DNA of 24,000 bases, taken from NCBI RefSeq assembly GCF_025397995.1, contig NZ_CP104550.1, positions 1,299,775 to 1,323,774 of the forward strand, in the 5' to 3' direction. The translations under genes were made by a program, and so were the position numbers. Positions 7,500 through 17,112 of this stretch are shown here, one piece after another; within the stretch, counting starts at the first letter, position 1, and every line of letters starts with the position of its first letter. The notes beneath the pieces were generated by a model that was given only the letters and a program-made list of their open reading frames with translations, made no database searches and was not told the origin of the DNA. This DNA comes from Methanothermobacter wolfeii (GTDB lineage Archaea > Methanobacteriota > Methanobacteria > Methanobacteriales > Methanothermobacteraceae).

Positions 7500-8102
7500 T
7501 CAGACCCTGCTCAGTTTCCATCCGTCTCCACTGTTAAATGCTGCCGCGGCTGTCACCGGGTGGGTGAAGCCTGCGAATTCACCCCCTTCGAGTATGAACT
7601 TTGCTGCTTCGTCTGCATCAGCAGCCTCGAATTGTGTGGGTGCCGGTTCTATCTGTTCATAGGTGGAGATGTACATTGATTCATTATCAGGGATCCTTTT
7701 AACGGTGATGCCGTCGGCCGTTACTATACCGATGAATGCCTCCCTTGCATCGATGGCCGCTGCTATCCTTGGTGTGTTGAGTTCATCCTTCTCATAGTCC
7801 ATTGCAAGGAGGGAGAATCCCATTGCATCCTTGAGGTTCATTCCAAGGGCTATCTTATCTGCAATGGTATCGGTGTGGGCTCCGTTTGAAACAACCGCCG
7901 TATCATCCACTATGCGGATGCAGTTGTATGCTATGTAGGGGTTCCTGAAGACATCACCCTCATGTCCCTCAACGGGTATCACGGACACCCTGTCCTCAAA
8001 GACCTTCGTGGTCCTGTTGGGGAAGGACCTGCTTGAAACCCTGTAGGCCACAAAGGCTCCTTCACTGTTCCTTCCAGCTGCAAGAATTCTTCCAAGATAC
8101 AT
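7500..8102 (-). CDS. purO: Archaeal IMP cyclohydrolase
   Basis: The ORF extends to 8129, but ATG at 8102 ([12 protein letters not shown]...) follows GGAGGT with 6-nt spacing. The sequence matches the PurO family, and the Methanothermobacter orthologue sits next to cofE in my recollection. Confidence 0.88.
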
Positions 8103-8213
8103 AAACCAACCTCCAGTTTTATTTGTCATTTGATGACCTTATGTGAACTATCCCTCCTGATGGAAGGGATTTCCCGCCGAAAGAGTTAAATCCCCTGAGC
8201 AATCCGTTGATGA

Positions 8214-8600
8214 TCATGATGGTGTTCTCACAGCCCTCTCAACAGGCAGGTCTGGAGGGGTCGTTATGATTATAGCTCCTTCCTTCGGCCTTATGATTAT
8301 CTCGCCCTCATCAATAACCCTTGTATGGACCGCCACGGCACTGTTTTTTATGTGCCCTGACATGTCAACCCCGTTTACGGTAACCTTACTTAAACCTGCA
8401 ACAGGTATGAGGTAATACTCTGATGGTCCTGTGTTCTCGGCTATCTCGGGTTTTCCTGAGGATCCCTGCCCTCCACCACCGAAGGTTGCGGTGACTACAA
8501 GGAAAATCAGTATTGTGAAGAGTATGTCGATGAATGGGACCATGTTAAAGCGGGGTTTCCCGTGGATTTTGCGCCTGTACCTGTCCGTGTCAAGGGGCAT
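8214..8600 (-). CDS. ExbD/TolR-family protein (single TM helix with conserved Asp)
   Basis: 128-aa ORF. The N-terminal segment PRFNMVPFIDILFTILIFLVV carries the family's membrane Asp, followed by an extracytoplasmic domain. It starts 4 nt after the ExbB-like stop. Confidence 0.8.
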   Translation of the reverse strand: MPLDTDRYRRKIHGKPRFNMVPFIDILFTILIFLVVTATFGGGGQGSSGKPEIAENTGPSEYYLIPVAGLSKVTVNGVDMSGHIKNSAVAVHTRVIDEGEIIIRPKEGAIIITTPPDLPVERAVRTPS

Positions 8601-8604
8601 CTGA

Positions 8605-9456
8605 TCACTGCCTCAGCTTGCTTTCAATTATCTCGGCGCTTCTACCGCACCTTTCAAGTATTATATTGTTTATGCTCTTCTCAAGCATGCTCGGCTTGAA
8701 TGCCACTGATAGGTTGGCATCATCATCATCCAGTTTCCTTACACTAACCACCCCATCAGACTCCATCAGGGCCTCGACGACCTCATCAACGTCTCCATCG
8801 ACCCTTATCCTCATGACGGCGTATCCCCAGTTTGTCATCTTCTTTATGAGTTCAATCTTATCGATCTCATCATCTATCCGTGATGTTATGTAGGAGTAGA
8901 GCGGCATGAGGATTATTGCAACTGCAAGTCCAAGTATTGTTGTTATGAGGGCCACGTAGATCCCCTCAGCCATTGCAGCGGGGTCAGCATTCACACCCAG
9001 GGCCCTGAAGGTGTACCAGATCCCTATCACGGTCCCGATGAGTCCCAGCATCGGGGCAACCTCTATGATGGTCCTGAGGGTTCCCAGGCCCTTTGTCATG
9101 TTGCTCATCTCAACGATGAAGACGCGTTCCATGGCATCCTCAACCTCTGACCGGTTCCTGTAACCTATCTTTAGGGCCTCGGAGATGATGCTGGAGACAG
9201 GGTTCTGGTACTGGCCGATCTCCCTGAGGGCCTCGAGGGCACCGCCCCTCTCCATTGAATCGTTGACTGTCCCTATTATCTGGGGTGTGCTTATCCGTGA
9301 AATCCTTCTGAGGTAGTTTATCTTCTCAACTGATGTTATGAAGCCGTAGATTCCCATGATGGCTATTATATATGTTATTGCACCGCCGCTCCTGAACATC
9401 TCAAGGATGGTGGCGAAGAAGTTGATGATCTGATCAGGGAACATGTTAAACATCAC
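8605..9456 (-). CDS. MotA/TolQ/ExbB-family proton-channel protein with an extra C-terminal domain of about 80 aa
   Basis: Signature sequence APMLGLIGTVIGIWYTF...AEGIYVALITTILGLAVAI is present. The start is ambiguous: GTG 9456, ATG 9453 or ATG 9444. ATG 9444 has AGGTGA 8 nt upstream. The C-terminal about 80 aa (AVMRIRVDGDVDEVVEAL...) lie outside the channel core. Confidence 0.85.
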   Translation of the reverse strand: MMFNMFPDQIINFFATILEMFRSGGAITYIIAIMGIYGFITSVEKINYLRRISRISTPQIIGTVNDSMERGGALEALREIGQYQNPVSSIISEALKIGYRNRSEVEDAMERVFIVEMSNMTKGLGTLRTIIEVAPMLGLIGTVIGIWYTFRALGVNADPAAMAEGIYVALITTILGLAVAIILMPLYSYITSRIDDEIDKIELIKKMTNWGYAVMRIRVDGDVDEVVEALMESDGVVSVRKLDDDDANLSVAFKPSMLEKSINNIILERCGRSAEIIESKLRQ

Positions 9457-9481
9457 CTGGAAGGGTATTTGCGAAACAGGG

Positions 9482-9494
9482 ATATTTAAAAATA
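9482..9494 (-). promoter_or_regulatory. Candidate TATA box for the exbB/exbD-like unit
   Basis: The minus strand reads TATTTTTAAATAT about 40 nt upstream of the start codons, in the 68-bp gap after rnhB. Confidence 0.35.
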
Positions 9495-9524
9495 GTGGTC
9501 TTCATCACATGTACCTGGAAAGTG

Positions 9525-10154
9525 TTAATCATGGCCTTCCTTCTTTTTCTTAACAGTTGCCCATGATTTCCTGACAAAGTCAGGCAGTTCATCGTAGCTG
9601 AATCCCTCAAGAAACCTCTTCGTCCTTGGATCGCTTGGGTAACCTGAACCTATATCCCCGAGTTTGCGGTTTTTCTTCCTTATCTTCTCTATCTCAAGGT
9701 CCCTTTCAACCTTGGCTATTATTGATGCTGCTGCAACAGGGTAATAGCGGGCGTCTGCACCATGCTCGGCCTTCACCTCCATATCCTTGAAGTGTGCCCT
9801 GATCTCATCCTCAAGCCTTGAGGGCTTCACATCAACCGAGTCTATTATGACACGGTCCGGCTGGGCCTCCATGATTATCCGCCTTATTGCTATCTTCTCT
9901 ATTTCATTGAGGTTGAATCCACGGGCACGCATCGCATCGATATCTGAGGCGCTGATTTTCACCGTGAAGACCCTTGCGATTCTCTGTATCTTCCTTGCAA
10001 GGAACCGTCTCCTCTCAGGGGTGAGTTTCTTCGAGTCTTTTATACCCATCTTCCTGAGTATCGAGAATTTCCTCTCAGGAACCATCACCCCGGCAACCAC
10101 AAGGGGTCCTATGACCGGGCCCCTGCCTGCTTCATCAATTCCAAGGACCTTCAT
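9525..10154 (-). CDS. rnhB: Ribonuclease HII
   Basis: 209-aa ORF with the N-terminal GIDEAGRGPVIGPLVVAG motif (catalytic DEAGRG) and a later DSK motif. Confidence 0.93.
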   Translation of the reverse strand: MKVLGIDEAGRGPVIGPLVVAGVMVPERKFSILRKMGIKDSKKLTPERRRFLARKIQRIARVFTVKISASDIDAMRARGFNLNEIEKIAIRRIIMEAQPDRVIIDSVDVKPSRLEDEIRAHFKDMEVKAEHGADARYYPVAAASIIAKVERDLEIEKIRKKNRKLGDIGSGYPSDPRTKRFLEGFSYDELPDFVRKSWATVKKKKEGHD

Positions 10155-10172: not shown

Positions 10173-11246
10173 TTATTTCATGGCCTTCAGCCTTACCTCC
10201 GGCTCAAGGGCCCTTGGTTCAGCTGCGACAATTGCGGCTCCCTTTGCAACCACGGTCATGGGGTCGTCGGATATCTCAACAGGGATGCCCACCTCTTCAA
10301 ATATCCTCTCCTTAATGCCTCTGAGCTGTGAGGTTCCACCCACAACCACGGTCTTATTGTAGACACCAGAGATCAGTTCAGGTGAGAGCCTTTCAAGCAC
10401 GGCGGCTATGGAGTTGACTATACCTTTAACAAGTGGTTCGGCGGCCTCAGCAACCATTTCAGAATCTATTTCAACCTTCTTGGGTTTGTTTGTTTCCATG
10501 CACTTCCCTATAACTACCGTCTTGAGATTCTCAAGGTCTTCGCTGCATTTGACCATTCCAACCTCTATCTTGGCCTTCTCTGCTTCATGTATGCCTATTT
10601 CCACGTTGAATTTTTCCTTTACAAGTTCAACTATGTTGCTGTCTATATCGTCACCGCCAATCCTTATGGTCTCGATGTCGGTGATTCCTCCAAGGGATAT
10701 TACAACAATGTCACTTGAACCCGCACCTATATCCACCACCATGGTACCTGAGGCCTCTGCTATTGGTAGACCCGCACCTATGGCGGCTGCCAGACCCTCA
10801 CTTATGACAAGAACATAATTTGCCCCTGCCTTTCTCCCTATCTCTTCCACAGCGTTCCTCTCAACCTCTGATGCATCCCCAGGTATGCCTATCACAATCC
10901 TATCTATGGATTCAGAGTCCCCTGCACCGAGCTCCATTGCATATACAAGCAGGGCCTCCGCCTGGGCCACACTCTCAATGACACCCTTCCTGAGGGGTCT
11001 TACTGCTATGATGTCTTCAGGGGTCCTTCCAAGCATCATCTTTGCCTCTTCACCCACTGCAAGGACATATGAGGGGTCCTCCTTCTTAACAGCCACGACT
11101 GAAGGAATCTTGTAAATATCAAATTTGTCCCCTGCTGGCTTGGCAACCACGGTATTGAGGGTACCGAGGTCTATGCCAAGGGTGTTGGCAATGGCCGCCC
11201 TTTTTTCATCTTTTTTTTCCTCGTTCTTCTTTCCAAATGAAAACAT
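10173..11246 (-). CDS. mreB: Actin-like rod-shape protein MreB
   Basis: Collinear with bacterial MreB by eye, using my recollection of the T. maritima protein: GIDLGTLNT, PLRKGVI, VVDIGAGSSD, IRIGGDDID, VVGGTSQLRG, AKGAAI. The ORF extends to 11285, but ATG at 11246 (MFSFGKKNEEKK...) follows GAGGAGGAG and lies 1 nt after the upstream gene's TAG. Confidence 0.9.
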   Translation of the reverse strand: MFSFGKKNEEKKDEKRAAIANTLGIDLGTLNTVVAKPAGDKFDIYKIPSVVAVKKEDPSYVLAVGEEAKMMLGRTPEDIIAVRPLRKGVIESVAQAEALLVYAMELGAGDSESIDRIVIGIPGDASEVERNAVEEIGRKAGANYVLVISEGLAAAIGAGLPIAEASGTMVVDIGAGSSDIVVISLGGITDIETIRIGGDDIDSNIVELVKEKFNVEIGIHEAEKAKIEVGMVKCSEDLENLKTVVIGKCMETNKPKKVEIDSEMVAEAAEPLVKGIVNSIAAVLERLSPELISGVYNKTVVVGGTSQLRGIKERIFEEVGIPVEISDDPMTVVAKGAAIVAAEPRALEPEVRLKAMK

Positions 11247-11247
11247 T

Positions 11248-11889
11248 CTACTCCTCCTCAACGATATCTTTAAAGTCAACTGCAAATATGTTATTTCTTG
11301 ATGCTATCTCACATATCCTCCTGACGTCATCCCTTTCATGAACCGAGATGAGAAGGGTTACAAGGACAACATCGGTGACCTTGAATAGGGGGTCTACTAT
11401 GTTCCTTATGAAGCCTGAGAGTTTCTCTGTCAGATAAACATCAGTTTCTATGAAACCCGTTGTCCTGTCTTCAAGGATGAATGAGAATCCTATGCTGTTT
11501 TTTTCAGCTTCACCTGCAAATTTCTTCATTGCATCCTCTGGTGCTACTAGAAGTACAAGGTTGGGTTCATTCTCCACATAATAGGGGGCTATCTTGATGA
11601 AGGCGCCCCCGTTATCCTTACATATAAGTGAAAGGTCCCTTATCTTGTTACTGTCACCATAGACCATTATAAAATCAAATCTTTTTCTTACAAAGGAATC
11701 CCTGATGGTAACGTGCTCTCTGAAAAGTATCTTCACAAGATCCTTTGAAGCAATCGACTCGTAGGCAACCGAGTTAACCATGTCCTCGTTACCTGCAATG
11801 ACCGCCCACAGCTTATCTGAACTCTGGGTCGTTGAAACCTTCGCGGCCTTCCTGAGGACCTTTATCTTGCTTTCTATCATCACCATCAC
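11248..11889 (-). CDS. Hypothetical soluble alpha/beta protein with an acidic C-terminal tail, translationally coupled to mreB
   Basis: 213-aa ORF with no TM segment and no motif I recognise. It ends ...DFKDIVEEE*. Its last codons (GAGGAGGAG) form the mreB ribosome-binding site. The start is ambiguous between 11880 and 11889. Confidence 0.6.
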   Translation of the reverse strand: MMVMIESKIKVLRKAAKVSTTQSSDKLWAVIAGNEDMVNSVAYESIASKDLVKILFREHVTIRDSFVRKRFDFIMVYGDSNKIRDLSLICKDNGGAFIKIAPYYVENEPNLVLLVAPEDAMKKFAGEAEKNSIGFSFILEDRTTGFIETDVYLTEKLSGFIRNIVDPLFKVTDVVLVTLLISVHERDDVRRICEIASRNNIFAVDFKDIVEEE

Positions 11890-12072: not shown

Positions 12073-12738
12073 GTGTTCGTTAAGGGTGTTGCAAAGAGGG
12101 TCAGTTTTCTGATAAGCGTGGCAACCATCCCCTTCCTTCTGGGTTATCACGCGGTGAGTATACTTATGTTCACTATTATCGCATTCATGATGCAGTTTTT
12201 CAGGGATCCTGAGAGAAGGTCGCCTCCTGAAAGAGACCTGATCGTAGCCCCGGCAGATGGCAGACGATTCTCCGGGAAGATTGACCGTATAGAGGAGGTT
12301 GGACCTGACTATCCCCTCATCGACAGGATATTTTCTGATGGAAGCGGTGGTCTCCTCATAAGCACCTTCATGTCACCCTTCGATGTCCATGTTAACAGGT
12401 CCCCCGTAACCGGGAAGGTTGTATACACCGAGCACCTTGACGGTAAGTTCAGGGTTGCCAGGTCAAGTATACTGACTGAGAACGAGAAAAACTTAATTGT
12501 AATAGAAACAGATTACGGTAACGTTGGAGTTATACAGATAGCAGGTTTCGTTGCCAGGAGAATAGTCCAGTACGTTGAGGAAGGGGATCATGTTGAGAAG
12601 GGGTGCCGTATAGGTATGATAAGGTTCGGTTCAAGGGTGGACCTTATACTGCCAGGAAACTGTGAGGTCCTTGTTGATACAGGTTCAAGGCCAAAGGCCG
12701 GGGAGACCGTTGTTGCAAGGTTCAGAGAAAACATTTAA
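12073..12738 (+). CDS. psd: Archaetidylserine (phosphatidylserine) decarboxylase proenzyme
   Basis: 221-aa ORF with a GTG start after AGGTGA. It has an N-terminal hydrophobic segment and the FGS self-cleavage (pyruvoyl-forming) site, with the Gly-Ser codons at 12628-12633. Confidence 0.88.
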   Translation: MFVKGVAKRVSFLISVATIPFLLGYHAVSILMFTIIAFMMQFFRDPERRSPPERDLIVAPADGRRFSGKIDRIEEVGPDYPLIDRIFSDGSGGLLISTFMSPFDVHVNRSPVTGKVVYTEHLDGKFRVARSSILTENEKNLIVIETDYGNVGVIQIAGFVARRIVQYVEEGDHVEKGCRIGMIRFGSRVDLILPGNCEVLVDTGSRPKAGETVVARFRENI

Positions 12739-12903
12739 GTCCTTAATTATAAACTTAACTTGGACAGGAACAGGAATCAGATTCAGGATATGAAAACGTT
12801 TAAGGATGAAAACCGACTAATGTCATGGTTCAAAGAAAGATTCTCAATGGAAAATCACCTTAGATTTAGTAGTTTATTAATTGAAAAATGACGCGGGGTC
12901 ATT

Positions 12904-13614
12904 ATGAAGGATTCATTTAACAAGGAAGAAAGAAGGATAACATCGTTTATAGGAATCCCTGATATTATATCCATGCTCAACGCTTCTTCAGGATACTTAT
13001 CAATTATTTTATCCATTAACGGGTTCTTTGATGCTGCATGCATACTTATGCTCACAGCCATGATCTTTGATTCCATGGATGGCTGGTTTGCCAGGAGGAG
13101 TGGAAGGACCGGGACCGGATTCGGAAAGAACATCGACTCCCTTTCAGATATAGTTTCATTTGGTGTTGCCCCGGCCATCTTTATCTATTCAGCAGGCGCC
13201 AGCTTTAAATATATTAATATATCAGTAGGTCTCTTAATAGTATTATGTGGTATACTGAGACTTTCAAGGTTCAATGTCCTCACAGGGGGTGTGAAAAACT
13301 TCACGGGTCTGCCAATACCCGTAGCGGCACTGATGCTATCATCATTCTATCTCACAGGATTCTACAGTGAAACTGCTGCAGCCATTCTGATGCTGGCTGT
13401 TTCTATCCTCATGGTGAGCAGTGTTGAATATCCCAAGGTTAGTGGGAAAAGTGCCTTGATGGTGCTTTTGCTGATAATGGTGGCAATCATAACGGGTCTT
13501 ATGACAGGCGCCATTTCAGGCCCCGTTTCGACCATGCTTTTCATTGCCACGATTATCTACATTATAATACCCATAACATCAATGAGACGTGATCTAAATG
13601 CTGGACAAAATTAA
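12904..13614 (+). CDS. pssA: CDP-archaeol:L-serine O-archaetidyltransferase (archaetidylserine synthase; CDP-alcohol phosphotransferase family)
   Basis: 236-aa polytopic ORF. The CDP-alcohol phosphotransferase motif DGWFAR-x9-G-x3-D-x3-D is encoded at 13078-13149. Confidence 0.9.
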   Translation: MKDSFNKEERRITSFIGIPDIISMLNASSGYLSIILSINGFFDAACILMLTAMIFDSMDGWFARRSGRTGTGFGKNIDSLSDIVSFGVAPAIFIYSAGASFKYINISVGLLIVLCGILRLSRFNVLTGGVKNFTGLPIPVAALMLSSFYLTGFYSETAAAILMLAVSILMVSSVEYPKVSGKSALMVLLLIMVAIITGLMTGAISGPVSTMLFIATIIYIIIPITSMRRDLNAGQN

Positions 13615-14899
13615 AGGTGATGACCGGGATAAGAAAAATCCTCCAGATCTCCGTAAAAACATCAGAAAAGAAGGATCAGATGTTGGGGATAAGTTAAAGG
13701 GACTTGTAGGTAAATTTGGTGGTGGAGAAGACGGTTCAAAGAAAAAGAGGGAACCGCGTCCCATGCCAAGGCCCCGTTTAAAATCACGCGAAACCAGGAA
13801 ACCCGAAAAGGCGCCTTTAAAATCAGAATCAGGTGAGAAACCGAAACCTAGACTTACTCCACCCCCCAAGAGACCAGGAGGGTCATCTGGAGGTATAGGA
13901 AGACGCATCCCCGAGGAGGATCAGAAAACCATTGTGGGTGCGGTTGTTTTTGGCGTTATACTCATGATACTCGTAGGTGCCGGTTACTACTTCCTTGTGT
14001 ACCAGCCATACCAGGAGGTCCTCCAGAACGCCAAGGCAACGAAGATCGCCGAGGTGGATGCACTGTTCAAGGGGCCCCTTGCAACAGATCCACAGAAACA
14101 GGCCATCCTTGCCCAGATAGATGGTGCCACGACTCCAGAGGAAGTCCTTGCCGTGGACGTGGTTGGGCCGGCTACACAGTCCTGGAGAACCTATCAGAAC
14201 CAGCAGATAAACCTGAAGAAGGATCGTGTTAACAGGGTAATGGTGAACTACACCGACAATGGTCAGGAAAAGCGCGTTATAATGAAGGTTGATGATGCCA
14301 AGAAGTTCGTGAGCCAGGCAGATGCAACGGTTCTTGCCAATACCCAGATCCAGACCCCTGACACGGTGGCGGTGCCCATAATGATCACACGTCTTCAGGC
14401 TGCAGGAGGCCTGATAAGTGTCGGTAGCATGGTGGACGTCTACCTCAGGCAGAATAACACAAATAACACAGCACCATCATCATCGACACCAAAGATAAGC
14501 GGTGCCACCGTGCTTGCAATCCTGCGTTCAAAGGACAGTGGAACGGTGGATGCCAGGATACTGAACACCCAGCGCCTCACACTCAACTCAATAACGTCCC
14601 AGAGTGAAAATGAAAGGACATCATCAACTGACGTTGAACAGCTCCTTAGAGCAGCGGCATCAGGAGGCCTCAACGAGGCTGAAATCAATGCAATACTTCA
14701 GAATTATGGTATACGGCTTTCAGATTACGAGAGATCCTCAAACCTGGGTGAACTGGAAGCAAACTACCTCATAATCCTTGAGGTGCCCAGAGAGGACGTT
14801 CTGTTCCTCATACAGAACATGGACAGCGTAATCCTTACCGTGCCGACACAGAACGCGCCTGACTGGATGATAAGGGAGCTGCAGAGGATATACGGATAA
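13598..14899 (+). CDS. Single-pass membrane protein with a basic Pro/Lys-rich N-terminal region and a CpaB/RcpC-like (SAF/beta-clip-like) ectodomain
   Basis: 433-aa ORF whose start overlaps the pssA stop by 17 nt. The TM segment IVGAVVFGVILMILVGAGYYFLVY is encoded at about 13928-14002. The C-terminal half has CpaB-like strings (ISVGSMVDVYL..., ISGATVLAILRS, ANYLIILEVPREDVLFL). The family assignment is by eye only. Confidence 0.55.
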   Translation: MLDKIKGDDRDKKNPPDLRKNIRKEGSDVGDKLKGLVGKFGGGEDGSKKKREPRPMPRPRLKSRETRKPEKAPLKSESGEKPKPRLTPPPKRPGGSSGGIGRRIPEEDQKTIVGAVVFGVILMILVGAGYYFLVYQPYQEVLQNAKATKIAEVDALFKGPLATDPQKQAILAQIDGATTPEEVLAVDVVGPATQSWRTYQNQQINLKKDRVNRVMVNYTDNGQEKRVIMKVDDAKKFVSQADATVLANTQIQTPDTVAVPIMITRLQAAGGLISVGSMVDVYLRQNNTNNTAPSSSTPKISGATVLAILRSKDSGTVDARILNTQRLTLNSITSQSENERTSSTDVEQLLRAAASGGLNEAEINAILQNYGIRLSDYERSSNLGELEANYLIILEVPREDVLFLIQNMDSVILTVPTQNAPDWMIRELQRIYG

Positions 14900-14957
14900 A
14901 TGAACCTTTTTATTGGGGGGATAATTTAATTTATTATTGATAGGTGGGGAATGTCAT

Positions 14958-15887
14958 ATGCGAAGAAGGTTGTGTATTCTTATACTTGCTTTAATGCTGC
15001 TTTCTGCTGCGGTAGTCCCTGAGAGCGGATCAGCAGCAAAGGAAACATGGGTGAAGGAAAACCCTTCTGCAACAAGCTTCAGACTGAAGGACCTTACAGC
15101 CGTTATAACCGTTAAGATAAAAAACAACGACAAAAACGTCCAGTACTTCAAGATAGGCCATGTCTATCAGGGAAGCCTTCAGGAGAACAGCACGATAAAA
15201 TGGATAATCCAGTGGACGGATCCAGCAGCTATTAAGATGGTTAAGTCAAGGACCCCTGAACTTGGAGGTGACTATGGATGGAAGATCAAACCAGGGGAGA
15301 CAAAGACGGTATCCTTCGGTCTGCAGGCAACAGGGGAAATGGGTGAGATCCCGAGTTACATAGTAAATGTTGAGTCAGATGACAGTAACTACTGGCCGAT
15401 CCTAAATGAGCCGGGATTAATGTCATCATGGTTCATACCAAATGAGATAGAAGTCCTGAACCCATCCCTTGATCTTAAGTACTGGAAGGGAACCTTCGGC
15501 TTCACACTGATAAACATCGATGATGAGAGGGTTTCAGGTATCGTCAGGGCCCCCATTGCACCTGTAAATTCAAGGGTGATCTACAGCAGCCCCCAGGCAT
15601 TCTCCGATGACAACCTGTTTGTCAGCACACAGGTCGCTGCATGGGATGTTACCATGGATCCTGAAACATCCCAGAGGTTCATCTACACCTATGAATGGCC
15701 TGCAAAGATAACAGGGGGTATGCCTCAACAGGCAGCGGCGGTTACTACCCACCGGGAACCCTCTACGGGACCACAGGTTCATCATCAGGGTTTCCAGGTC
15801 AGAAAAACAGGGGCGCCCTACGGTCCGCTGGTCATAGGGGCCCTTGTAACAGCGGCAGCAGTGGCATACACGAGGCTAATGCGCTGA
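14958..15887 (+). CDS. Secreted beta-rich protein with an N-terminal signal peptide and a C-terminal hydrophobic, basic anchor (candidate sortase substrate)
   Basis: The ORF opens at 14937, but ATG at 14958 follows GGTGGGG and gives MRRRLCILILALMLLSAAVVPESGSA|AKE. The C-terminus is ...EPSTGPQVHHQGFQVRKTGAPYGPLVIGALVTAAAVAYTRLMR*. Confidence 0.8.
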   Translation: MRRRLCILILALMLLSAAVVPESGSAAKETWVKENPSATSFRLKDLTAVITVKIKNNDKNVQYFKIGHVYQGSLQENSTIKWIIQWTDPAAIKMVKSRTPELGGDYGWKIKPGETKTVSFGLQATGEMGEIPSYIVNVESDDSNYWPILNEPGLMSSWFIPNEIEVLNPSLDLKYWKGTFGFTLINIDDERVSGIVRAPIAPVNSRVIYSSPQAFSDDNLFVSTQVAAWDVTMDPETSQRFIYTYEWPAKITGGMPQQAAAVTTHREPSTGPQVHHQGFQVRKTGAPYGPLVIGALVTAAAVAYTRLMR

Positions 15888-15897
15888 CCCATTAACC

Positions 15898-15908
15898 TTT
15901 ATTTTTTT
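15898..15908 (+). terminator. Oligo-T tract (TTTATTTTTTT) between the candidate substrate gene and the sortase gene
   Basis: It starts 11 nt after the stop at 15885-15887 and lies immediately upstream of the sortase ribosome-binding site (AGGGGGGA). It may act as an intra-operon attenuator. Confidence 0.35.
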
Positions 15909-15922
15909 AAAGGGGGGACCTC

Positions 15923-16645
15923 TTGAGGCTTAGCACGGCTCTTGTAATCACTGGTATGTTTATAATCTCACTCTACGCCCTTATTGAGGTAAGCTTCTAC
16001 TCCTCCCAGATAACGGTCCATCAGAGGGATGTTGATTCACCGGTAGTTGAGATACCCTCCCTCAACCTTACAGAGAATATAAACAACAGATCAGTATTCT
16101 ACGGGGTCTACCATGAACCAAGATCCTACACCCCCGGGAACAGAACCGTGATACTCTTCGGTCACAGAACCCTCTATGGATCACCCTTCCTCAAACTTGA
16201 CAGGTTAAGGGCTGGGGATGAGGTTTACCTTAACTGGCCGGGTATAGGGCTTGCAGAGTACCGTGTAAACCGTTCATTCATTGTCCCTGAATCCTACCAG
16301 ATGTCAGTGGAACAGGGAGCCCGGCTTTTCCTCATCACATGCCACCCGCCGGGGTCAACAAGGGAACGGCTCATAGTTGAATGCAAACTTGTGAGGATAA
16401 CGCCCTACCAGAAGAGCCTTAAGGTGGAAAACCCCAGGAGGTACTATGCCCTCCTGATAATCACAGGTTTTCTAATCGGAGGGCTTTTTATCACCAAGAT
16501 ATACCCTGTTTCTGAGGATAAAAGGATTCTCCTTGCTGCTGTAATAGGACTTACACTATTTCTTATCCTGGGATACATCTTCCCTGTTCCACCGGAGTTC
16601 ATATCCGACAAACTCTCAGAAATCAACAGCATGATGGGGATCTGA
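15923..16645 (+). CDS. Sortase-family cysteine transpeptidase, membrane-anchored (N-terminal TM plus two C-terminal TM segments)
   Basis: 240-aa ORF with a TTG start after AGGGGGGA. It is collinear with my recollection of S. aureus SrtA: ILFGHRT (His81, codon 16163-16165), GDEVYL, YRV, LFLITCHP (Cys140, codon 16340-16342) and STRERLIV (Arg147/149). Confidence 0.88.
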   Translation: MRLSTALVITGMFIISLYALIEVSFYSSQITVHQRDVDSPVVEIPSLNLTENINNRSVFYGVYHEPRSYTPGNRTVILFGHRTLYGSPFLKLDRLRAGDEVYLNWPGIGLAEYRVNRSFIVPESYQMSVEQGARLFLITCHPPGSTRERLIVECKLVRITPYQKSLKVENPRRYYALLIITGFLIGGLFITKIYPVSEDKRILLAAVIGLTLFLILGYIFPVPPEFISDKLSEINSMMGI

Positions 16646-16743: not shown

Positions 16744-17112
16744 ATGAAGGATGCTGACAGTAAATACTTCTCCAACCTTACAGATAGAGAAAGGGCCATA
16801 TTTGAAGGCGGAATCAGCATGGGTGCTCTCTTCCATCAGTTTACCGGAACACCCGTGAATCTGAGAATCGCAGAGGACCTTGAAAGGGCCATCGCAGAAG
16901 CCATAAGCCTGCAGCCCGCCATCAGGGATGTTGAAGTCCATATAGACAGGGAACGCCTCATGGAGGCGTCAGGAGAATTTGGATACACATCACTCACAGG
17001 GGAAATGCTGGATGTCACCCTGACTGTGGAGTACGGCTCAGCAGTGATCAGGGTCCGCCTCGAGTACATTGAGGAACTCAAGTACCCCCTCATGTACGTC
17101 CATGATGAATAA
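16744..17112 (+). CDS. mptD: Archaeal dihydroneopterin aldolase (MptD family; methanopterin biosynthesis)
   Basis: 122-aa ORF with a GAAGGAG ribosome-binding site upstream. The string ERAIFEGGISMGALFHQFTGTPV matches my recollection of the MptD/DUF381 family. Confidence 0.7.
   Translation: MKDADSKYFSNLTDRERAIFEGGISMGALFHQFTGTPVNLRIAEDLERAIAEAISLQPAIRDVEVHIDRERLMEASGEFGYTSLTGEMLDVTLTVEYGSAVIRVRLEYIEELKYPLMYVHDE

Follow-up and report, generated by a model that had tools for sequence, protein, structure and literature searches.

The stretch of DNA analysed here, a window of 24,000 nucleotides, comes from Methanothermobacter wolfeii: entries of this species match its sortase at 99% identity and its DUF515, PssA and Psd proteins at 100%. 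It carries five consecutive open reading frames (ORFs) on the plus strand, which encode an archaetidylserine decarboxylase (psd), an archaetidylserine synthase (pssA), a DUF515 protein, a secreted protein with a C-terminal sorting signal and a sortase. A previous sequence-only reading had assigned the stretch to a methanogen and had listed these five genes, the 165-bp spacer between psd and pssA and the 17-nt overlap of pssA with the gene that follows it; the host is M. wolfeii, all five ORFs were found where they had been placed, and both spacer and overlap are real. The profile searches that it had proposed bore out the psd, pssA and sortase families but not CpaB, in whose place we found a DUF515 protein with a marginal RcpC domain. 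To compare the block with its relatives, we used 67 loci around sortase orthologues from species-representative genomes, mostly of Methanobacterium, to which further contigs were added; unless stated otherwise, counts per gene refer to Methanobacteriaceae loci with sufficient flank.

The sortase

The sortase gene (15923-16645, plus strand) starts with TTG and encodes 240 residues that match PF04203 over profile positions 1-125 of 125 (68.3 bits against 26.6). With helices read from the sequence, the catalytic domain of ~130 residues is preceded by one membrane helix at the N-terminus and followed by two at the C-terminus. The His/Cys/Arg triad, previously described as intact, consists of His81 (codon 16163-16165), Cys140 (16340-16342) and Arg149 (16367-16369). 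All 120 homologues among the matches listed share His81, Thr139-Cys140 (in LITC, which is TLxTC-like) and Arg149, and the conservation in orthologues on which the sequence-only reading had staked its claim is thereby upheld.

On sequence evidence the enzyme is a sortase, from which classes C, D and E are equidistant. The enzyme reached no class model, scoring 36.5 bits with NF033747 (class E) and 33.1 bits with NF033745 (class C; cutoff 160 each). A profile search of the PDB likewise found classes C, D and E about equally distant; the best matches belong to class C (8t28 at 1.8e-9, and 2w1k), and SrtE structures rank below those of C and D. The public label "class E sortase" (CDD cd05830) was rejected because it rests on weaker criteria, the class model is not reached and the substrate motif is not LAXTG. 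A check for class C features found a single substrate gene and conserved lysines without the canonical YPKN motif. A role of the enzyme as the pseudomurein cross-linking transpeptidase itself, suggested by its restriction to pseudomurein lineages, was set aside as less likely, since the gene beside it encodes a protein substrate of the classical kind, complete with sorting signal. The genomes have been reported to contain two sortases (PMC3087415). Our search of the literature on sortases together with pseudomurein or Methanobacteriales found no functional study.

The secreted substrate and its sorting signal

The putative cognate substrate (14958-15887, plus strand) comprises 309 residues from its ATG, and its stop-to-stop frame also offers a TTG at 14937. 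It consists of a signal peptide, two beta-sandwich domains, a stalk and a C-terminal signal. The AlphaFold model, with a predicted local distance difference test score (pLDDT) of 81, places strands at residues 30-135 and 155-247, a disordered segment at 253-286 and a helix at 289-308. Ser (21%) and Thr (16%) abound in the stalk, and N-x-S/T sequons occur in 93 of 149 family members. Near-invariant lysines, including that of Y63-F64-K65, are located within predicted strands. This layout of globular domains, Ser/Thr-rich stalk and signal mirrors the wall-spanning regions of Gram-positive surface proteins.

Searches of Pfam and NCBIfam with five family members and with the isolated tail gave no match even at E up to 10. 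We found about 170 homologues, all of them hypothetical proteins and all from Methanobacteriales, and a profile search of 1.84 billion proteins returned 36 representatives of the family, mostly fragments. Two distant homologues of the beta-sandwich domains, P0386 (522 residues, E 3e-9) and P0388 (622 residues, E 2e-6, from a Methanobacteriota metagenome-assembled genome), have no sorting signal and end in long acidic or coiled stretches instead.

The sequence-only reading had described this product as a signal-peptide protein with a hydrophobic, basic C-terminal tail. That description is confirmed, and the tail proves to be a conserved tripartite sorting signal, which spans residues 279-309 in the window (15792-15887, plus strand; FQVRK-TG-APYGPLVIGALVTAAAVAYTRLMR). 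The family consensus, derived from 146 distinct tails, reads [S/T]-V-P-[T/S]-x-x-T-G-x-P-[Y/F/W]-G-L and is followed by a membrane helix and a basic end. Relative to the glycine of TG as position 0, Val occupies -6 in 119 tails, Pro -5 in 134 and Thr or Ser -4 in 126; position -3 is K, Q, S or R, and TG is followed by [VLAI]-P-[YFW]-G-L. The T, the G and the next P of the motif were preset by the search pattern, and nearly every intact orthologue has them. Exactly 24 residues follow TG in 128 of the 146 tails, ~18 of them hydrophobic, and the tail terminates in Y-A-[K/R]-F-x-R with the basic pattern [K/R]-x-x-[R/K], as in the example ...SVPTKETGVPYGLFVVGALVTVAGVAYAKFMR from the surveyed loci. 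The peptide itself takes the forms SVPTKETGVPYG, VPGAKTGAPYG in Methanothermobacter and FQVRKTGAPYG after a frameshift in M. wolfeii.

Motif, hydrophobic segment and positively charged C-terminal tail together form the tripartite layout of LPXTG-type signals. Neither LPXTG nor LAXTG is present, the signal reading VP[T/S]xxTG, and TIGR01167 and PF00746 are not matched. By analogy with LPXTG systems, cleavage would fall between Thr284 (15807-15809) and Gly285 (15810-15812).

Each locus contains one signal-bearing ORF, which adjoins the sortase, and a profile search of 1.84 billion representatives found the signal nearly confined to the substrate family. The only clear carrier outside it, P0385, is an unrelated protein of 118 residues with the signal SVPVQNTGVPYGLFAVG...; this small secreted protein, from a JGI (Joint Genome Institute) metagenome contig of 1.1 kb, has three EPTLSSPSDI repeats and no beta-sandwich domains. 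The 53-residue ORF P0387 could represent either a remnant or another carrier. Separately, a second, LPXTA-like motif, [I/V/F/L]-P-x-[T/S]-[S/A/T/N]-A (for example IPKTSAA), occurs in 75 of 149 family members at a fixed distance of 16-17 residues upstream of the Thr of TG (L003-L067, P0126-P0240). Because two sortases have been reported in such genomes, a second processing site at this motif is conceivable.

Frame variants of the M. wolfeii stalk

In the window, two frameshifts that compensate each other, one at a G5 run and one at an A5 run, put the stalk segment encoded by ~15719-15806 (plus strand) outside the ancestral frame. DNA alignment with a sister Methanothermobacter (L001) shows one base lost after the G5 run (~15713) and one gained in the A5 run (~15803), and the alternative-frame ORF 15695-15895 encodes the sequence of the relatives, GGYYP..TTGSSS.P..K. 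Among M. wolfeii assemblies we found four versions of the stalk. The ancestral frame reads ...SSSGFPGQKTGAPYG; two different compensated frameshifts share a common downstream junction; and one uncompensated version (P0438) loses both membrane helix and sorting signal. Sequencing error was rejected as the source of the frameshifted stalk, since the exact window protein is found on 58 contigs and the other compensated variant on 38. At the level of sequence, two independent frame restorations within one species argue for selection on the K-TG-APYG...R tail. The variation as a whole looks like either slippage-driven anchor switching or relaxed selection on the stalk.

The lipid genes and their overlap with DUF515

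Psd (12073-12738, plus strand, 221 residues) is an archaetidylserine decarboxylase proenzyme (psd/asd) by its match to TIGR00164 (305.2 bits against a cutoff of 230) and PF02666. It has the FGSR self-cleavage motif at residue 185, and its M. wolfeii entry is named archaetidylserine decarboxylase. PssA (12904-13614, plus strand, 236 residues) matches the archaetidylserine synthase (pssA/ass) model NF038087 with 265.2 bits against a cutoff of 240 and carries the CDP-alcohol phosphotransferase motif DSMDGWFAR-x9-G-x3-D-x3-D at residue 56. With both profiles above cutoff and both motifs in place, the identities proposed earlier for the two genes stand.

The archaeosortase-linked "protein sorting system" models were not reached by either protein (PssA, NF038086, 95.4 against 200; Psd, NF038088, 134.9 against 240). 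As judged by these profiles, PssA and Psd are the general aminolipid enzymes of the cell and lie outside the archaeosortase-linked subfamilies. MTH_1027 of Methanothermobacter is a biochemically characterised archaetidylserine synthase of bulk lipid (PMC7157517, PMC8305020). We base the putative orthology of the window pssA to MTH_1027 on its gene position and its NCBIfam match; the annotation of the M. wolfeii substrate refers, by similarity, to AAB85525, which lies two genes beyond the expected position of MTH_1027. Whereas pssA is present in 55 of 55 loci, psd is found in 45 of 50, the exceptions being five Methanobacterium genomes whose locus is otherwise intact.

The gene downstream of pssA (13598-14899, plus strand) encodes a DUF515 protein of 433 residues (PF04415, 94.9 bits against 29), and its homologues are publicly named "DUF515 domain-containing protein". 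The label "CpaB-like" that it had been given was overstated: it finds support in a marginal match to the RcpC domain (PF16976, 30.1 against 28.8, over the 68 residues 253-320), but the full-length CpaB model TIGR03177 scored 20.7 against 71, by which CpaB orthology was rejected, and no Tad/Flp genes lie in the 24-kb window. The N-terminal region of the protein, basic and rich in proline, contains conserved motifs and by sequence is probably cytoplasmic; one membrane helix (~111-135) and a large, highly conserved outer part follow. With a mean column identity of 58% (alignment A3), it is conserved above both of its neighbours. The AlphaFold model is poor (pLDDT 53), with confidence limited to residues 110-255, and a PDB profile search with the protein returned no solved relative.

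DUF515 is present in 59 of 59 loci. Its start overlaps the pssA stop codon by 7-17 nt (mode 11) in 55 of 58 loci, the overlap in the window being 13598-13614, and in two loci from which the substrate gene is absent (L013 and L070), DUF515 still lies directly upstream of the sortase. The remaining spacers of the block, of 165, 58 and 35 bp, are AT-rich with TATA-like stretches in each, and judged by spacing the pssA/DUF515 overlap alone argues for obligatory co-transcription among the five genes. As far as gene arrangement indicates, this overlap is the tightest coupling in the locus and the only specific tie of the lipid genes to the module. Homologues of DUF515 also occur in Euryarchaeota without pseudomurein, in which the sortase was not found (Lupo et al, Table S2, PMC11915815), and the protein should therefore be more than a mere sortase accessory.

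Gene neighbourhoods in Methanobacteriales

Wherever the flank suffices, the five genes of the block share one orientation in Methanobacteriaceae. In 60 of 65 loci of this family the sortase gene is immediately preceded by that of the substrate, and the same arrangement is found on a Methanobrevibacter-like contig. The substrate gene is split in L022 and L043. In L027, DUF515 and sortase flank an opposite-strand, transposase-like ORF of 526 residues (8096-9676) instead of the substrate gene.

The genes around the block are linked to it equally tightly. On one side, RNase HII is conserved in 43 of 43 loci, an MreB-like actin (10173-11285, minus strand; PF06723, 348.6 bits) in 44 of 44 and a divergently transcribed gene (11248-11889, minus strand) at the same position in 46 of 46. 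The product of the latter had no match in Pfam or NCBIfam and by gene position is probably the "coiled coil" OG0001176 of a published gene cluster, cluster C of Lupo et al (2025), of which the MreB-like actin is also a member. On the other side, a gene of the dihydroneopterin aldolase family (16744-17112, plus strand; PF04038, 147.6 bits) lies directly 3' of the sortase in 68 of 68 loci, with a gap of 0-2 nt in ~20 of them; from this spacing it is probably co-transcribed with the sortase, without an evident functional relation. Two genes past MreB, the window encodes a protein of the MotA/TolQ/ExbB family with a C-terminal extension (8605-9456, minus strand); a MotA/TolQ/ExbB group is among the candidate groups retained by Lupo et al (PMC11915815).

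In Methanothermus fervidus the block is dispersed. Its sortase, 57% identical to the window enzyme and of the same length, lies between glycosyltransferase genes and nrdD, and its substrate gene, with the signal retained as TVPTKETGAPLAPLLLG..., lies beside the mcr operon and hisG; psd, pssA and DUF515 are absent near both. The sortase (L068, 8303-9301) is divergent from a glycosyltransferase operon that includes LPG_synthase_TM (PF03706), an envelope-glycan context. M. fervidus also has a shorter sortase paralogue (L071, 13912-14490) of 192 residues, 34% identical to the window enzyme, which lies 5 kb downstream of the unlinked substrate gene, the main sortase being ~290 kb off. A survey of gene neighbourhoods, proposed with the sequence-only reading, finds psd/pssA and the tagged protein near the sortase in most Methanobacteriaceae loci, but the linkage is lost in M. 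fervidus.

This locus was independently identified as cluster C in a survey by Lupo et al (2025, mSystems, PMC11915815); the cluster comprises an aminotransferase, the MreB-like and coiled-coil proteins, an RcpC/CpaB-like protein (OG0001177) and a "sortase E" (OG0001178). Among archaea, that survey detected the orthologous group of the sortase in pseudomurein-bearing Euryarchaeota and in no others; relatives occur in Firmicutes and Actinobacteria (PMC11915815, Table S2). As indirect evidence on Methanopyrus, the accession numbers given by Lupo et al end in 246 for the sortase, 250 for DUF515, 262 for the coiled-coil protein and 264 for MreB. The authors judged cluster C to be probably unrelated to pseudomurein (PMC11915815).

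Proposed function and the acceptor of the sortase reaction

The sequence-only reading had proposed that a sortase-fold enzyme and a secreted protein with a C-terminal tag make up a surface-anchoring unit. This proposal gains strength from the conserved signal, from the 60 of 65 loci in which the two genes adjoin and from the signal kept in M. fervidus. We take sortase and substrate to be a cognate pair because the signal has a fixed length, the genes are adjacent and both are retained where they are unlinked in M. fervidus. With moderate confidence, we favour the view that they form a dedicated sortase-substrate pair of pseudomurein-walled methanogens, which uses pseudomurein as the acceptor and is embedded in a larger array of envelope and housekeeping genes.

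According to this model, the 309-residue protein would be exported by Sec through its signal peptide and, as its architecture suggests, be held in the membrane by the C-terminal helix and basic end. The catalytic domain of the sortase would lie outside the cell, between the N-terminal helix and the two C-terminal ones that tether it to the membrane. It would recognise VP[T/S]xxTG at the membrane surface, and Cys140, following sortase chemistry, would cut after the Thr to give a thioacyl intermediate. The protein would then be passed to an amine, most likely one that belongs to a pseudomurein stem peptide or to its lipid-linked precursor, and a Ser/Thr-rich, probably glycosylated stalk would carry the two beta-sandwich domains within the wall or upon it. 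In pseudomurein stem peptides, amino groups of Lys and Glu take part in cross-linking. We favour attachment to pseudomurein because a transpeptidase of Gram-positive type is confined, among archaea, to lineages with a peptidoglycan-like wall; the stalk of the substrate, moreover, is of wall-spanning type. The sequence-only reading had offered pseudomurein as its alternative acceptor, and of its two proposals this one agrees better with the phyletic pattern.

Several observations weigh against this interpretation. Five Methanobacteriaceae loci have no intact substrate gene beside the sortase; the gene is absent from L013 and L070, a transposase gene has taken its place in L027, no ORF is left in L046 and a 93-residue remnant is found in L060. 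The M. wolfeii allele of the window lacks the conserved Val-Pro of the motif through its frameshift, so that either this part is dispensable or the allele is impaired. The motif differs from LPXTG and LAXTG, the cleavage site being placed by analogy, and processing is a prediction, with the acceptor deduced from phyletic distribution alone. A TG flush with the membrane and a doubly tethered catalytic domain would suit a lipid head group and a lipid-linked wall precursor alike. Lastly, the pssA-DUF515 overlap and the adjacency of DUF515 to the sortase leave room for a link to lipids.

Such a link would mean that the amine of archaetidylethanolamine or archaetidylserine resolves the thioacyl intermediate and thereby provides the protein with a C-terminal lipid anchor, with DUF515 perhaps coupling PssA to the sortase. 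We consider this unlikely. It would explain the co-orientation of pssA and DUF515 with the sortase in every Methanobacteriaceae locus with enough flank, the overlap of pssA with DUF515 in 55 of 58 loci, the position of DUF515 beside the sortase even where the substrate is missing, and a scissile TG at the very start of the membrane helix together with a catalytic domain tethered on both sides. However, PssA and Psd fail the "protein sorting system" models and pass the general ones, the PssA family being that of the bulk-lipid enzyme MTH_1027. Because unrelated genes such as RNase HII and the dihydroneopterin aldolase gene, the latter often only 0-2 nt away, are conserved in the block as tightly, the synteny of psd/pssA with the sortase is non-specific. 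In addition, psd is missing from five of 50 loci, and in M. fervidus both sortase and substrate lie away from psd, pssA and DUF515. The claim that the sortase is wired to an aminolipid supply from psd and pssA thus finds no specific support, given the general nature of the two enzymes, this non-specific synteny and the lost linkage in M. fervidus and, for psd, in five loci. The sortase is moreover limited to pseudomurein lineages while aminolipids are widespread, and we know of no sortase-fold enzyme that uses a lipid amine in vivo.

Lipid anchoring does have a precedent in archaeosortase A (ArtA): HvPssA and HvPssD are required for the processing of ArtA substrates, and artA, pssA and pssD are syntenic in Methanosarcina (Abdul-Halim et al, 2020, PMC7157517). 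The sequence-only reading had cited this work in Haloferax, and correctly so for the requirement; the synteny, however, is that of Methanosarcina, and pssA, pssD and artA are unclustered in Haloferax and in more than 70 haloarchaea (PMC7157517).

We regard it as quite improbable that no transpeptidation takes place at all, with the helix serving as a permanent anchor or the sortase clipping and releasing the protein by hydrolysis, and with gene adjacency reflecting co-expression. Loss of the substrate is tolerated in L027, where the transposase-like ORF is found, and in L013 and L070, and M. wolfeii has a version without anchor (P0438), all of which would fit such an arrangement. A plain anchor, however, needs neither an invariant T-G-x-P core nor a tail of fixed length (24 residues) nor a VP[T/S] element, the catalytic triad is invariant in all 120 homologues among the matches listed, and compensating frameshifts restore the signal.

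A covalent fibre assembled as by class C sortases, in which the two-domain protein is joined head to tail through a conserved lysine, is very improbable: the best PDB matches do belong to class C, whose members also have a C-terminal membrane helix, the two immunoglobulin-like beta-sandwich domains resemble those of Gram-positive pilins, Y63-F64-K65 loosely recalls the YPK pilin motif and two sortases are reported in such genomes, but the class C model is far from reached with classes D and E scoring almost alike, minor pilin genes and a canonical pilin motif were not found at these loci, the lysines lie inside predicted strands and the known Methanothermobacter fimbriae are made of a different protein.

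Significance

We know of no archaeal sortase that has been characterised and of no protein that is covalently attached to pseudomurein. The locus brings together an enzyme, one cognate substrate and a defined tag for its recognition, each conserved in Methanobacterium, Methanothermobacter and Methanobrevibacter, gut and rumen methanogens among them. Should pseudomurein prove to be the acceptor, archaeal walls would parallel those of bacteria in protein display as well, and the pair might offer a handle for surface engineering or for anti-methanogen targeting. If the acceptor were instead an aminolipid, the chemistry would be new to the sortase fold, and the enzyme would be the first sortase directed at lipids. 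C-terminal aminolipid anchoring would then have arisen independently for the third time, after archaeosortase and rhombosortase, and DUF515, translationally coupled to PssA, would physically link lipid synthesis and sorting. The conserved pssA-DUF515 overlap also points to an unstudied partner of archaeal aminolipid synthesis.

Comparison with known systems

The synteny of the DUF515/RcpC-like gene with the sortase in pseudomurein archaea is shared with cluster C of Lupo et al, and both this synteny and the restriction to pseudomurein archaea are already published. The substrate gene, its signal, the psd/pssA neighbours and the pssA-DUF515 overlap are not described there. As far as the literature shows, the substrate family, the fixed-length VP[T/S]xxTG signal, the frame-restoring variants and the overlap are new.

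With archaeosortase A, its PGF-CTERM substrates and PssA/PssD, the locus shares C-terminal processing in an archaeon near archaetidylserine genes, and a Cys-based transpeptidase logic has been proposed there too. In contrast, ArtA is a polytopic membrane protein of unrelated fold that acts on a PGF motif, whereas PssA and Psd of the window are general enzymes and not of the "anchor_synt" subfamily, and the linkage is lost in M. fervidus.

Single-target sortases (SrtB-IsdC, and the "marine" class GN) resemble the window in having one sortase gene next to one cognate protein with a non-standard signal. They differ in that neither substrate nor signal is homologous to that of the window, and TIGR03784 scores 27 against 158.

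Parallels also exist with class A SrtA (LPXTG) and class E SrtE (LAXTG), bacterial housekeeping sortases by which surface proteins are joined to lipid II or peptidoglycan. These enzymes share with the window sortase the PF04203 fold, the His-Cys-Arg triad, a TLxTC-like motif (LITC in the window enzyme) and an N-terminal membrane anchor; their substrates share with that of the window a Sec signal peptide, a tripartite signal and a stalk of wall-spanning type, and the wall of the window host is peptidoglycan-like. That host, in contrast, is an archaeon with pseudomurein, the Pro of its signal lies two residues further from TG than in LPXTG, and TG abuts the helix. The window enzyme, moreover, has two extra, conserved C-terminal membrane helices, scores 36.5 against 160 with the class E model and serves essentially one substrate family, where the bacterial enzymes have many substrates.

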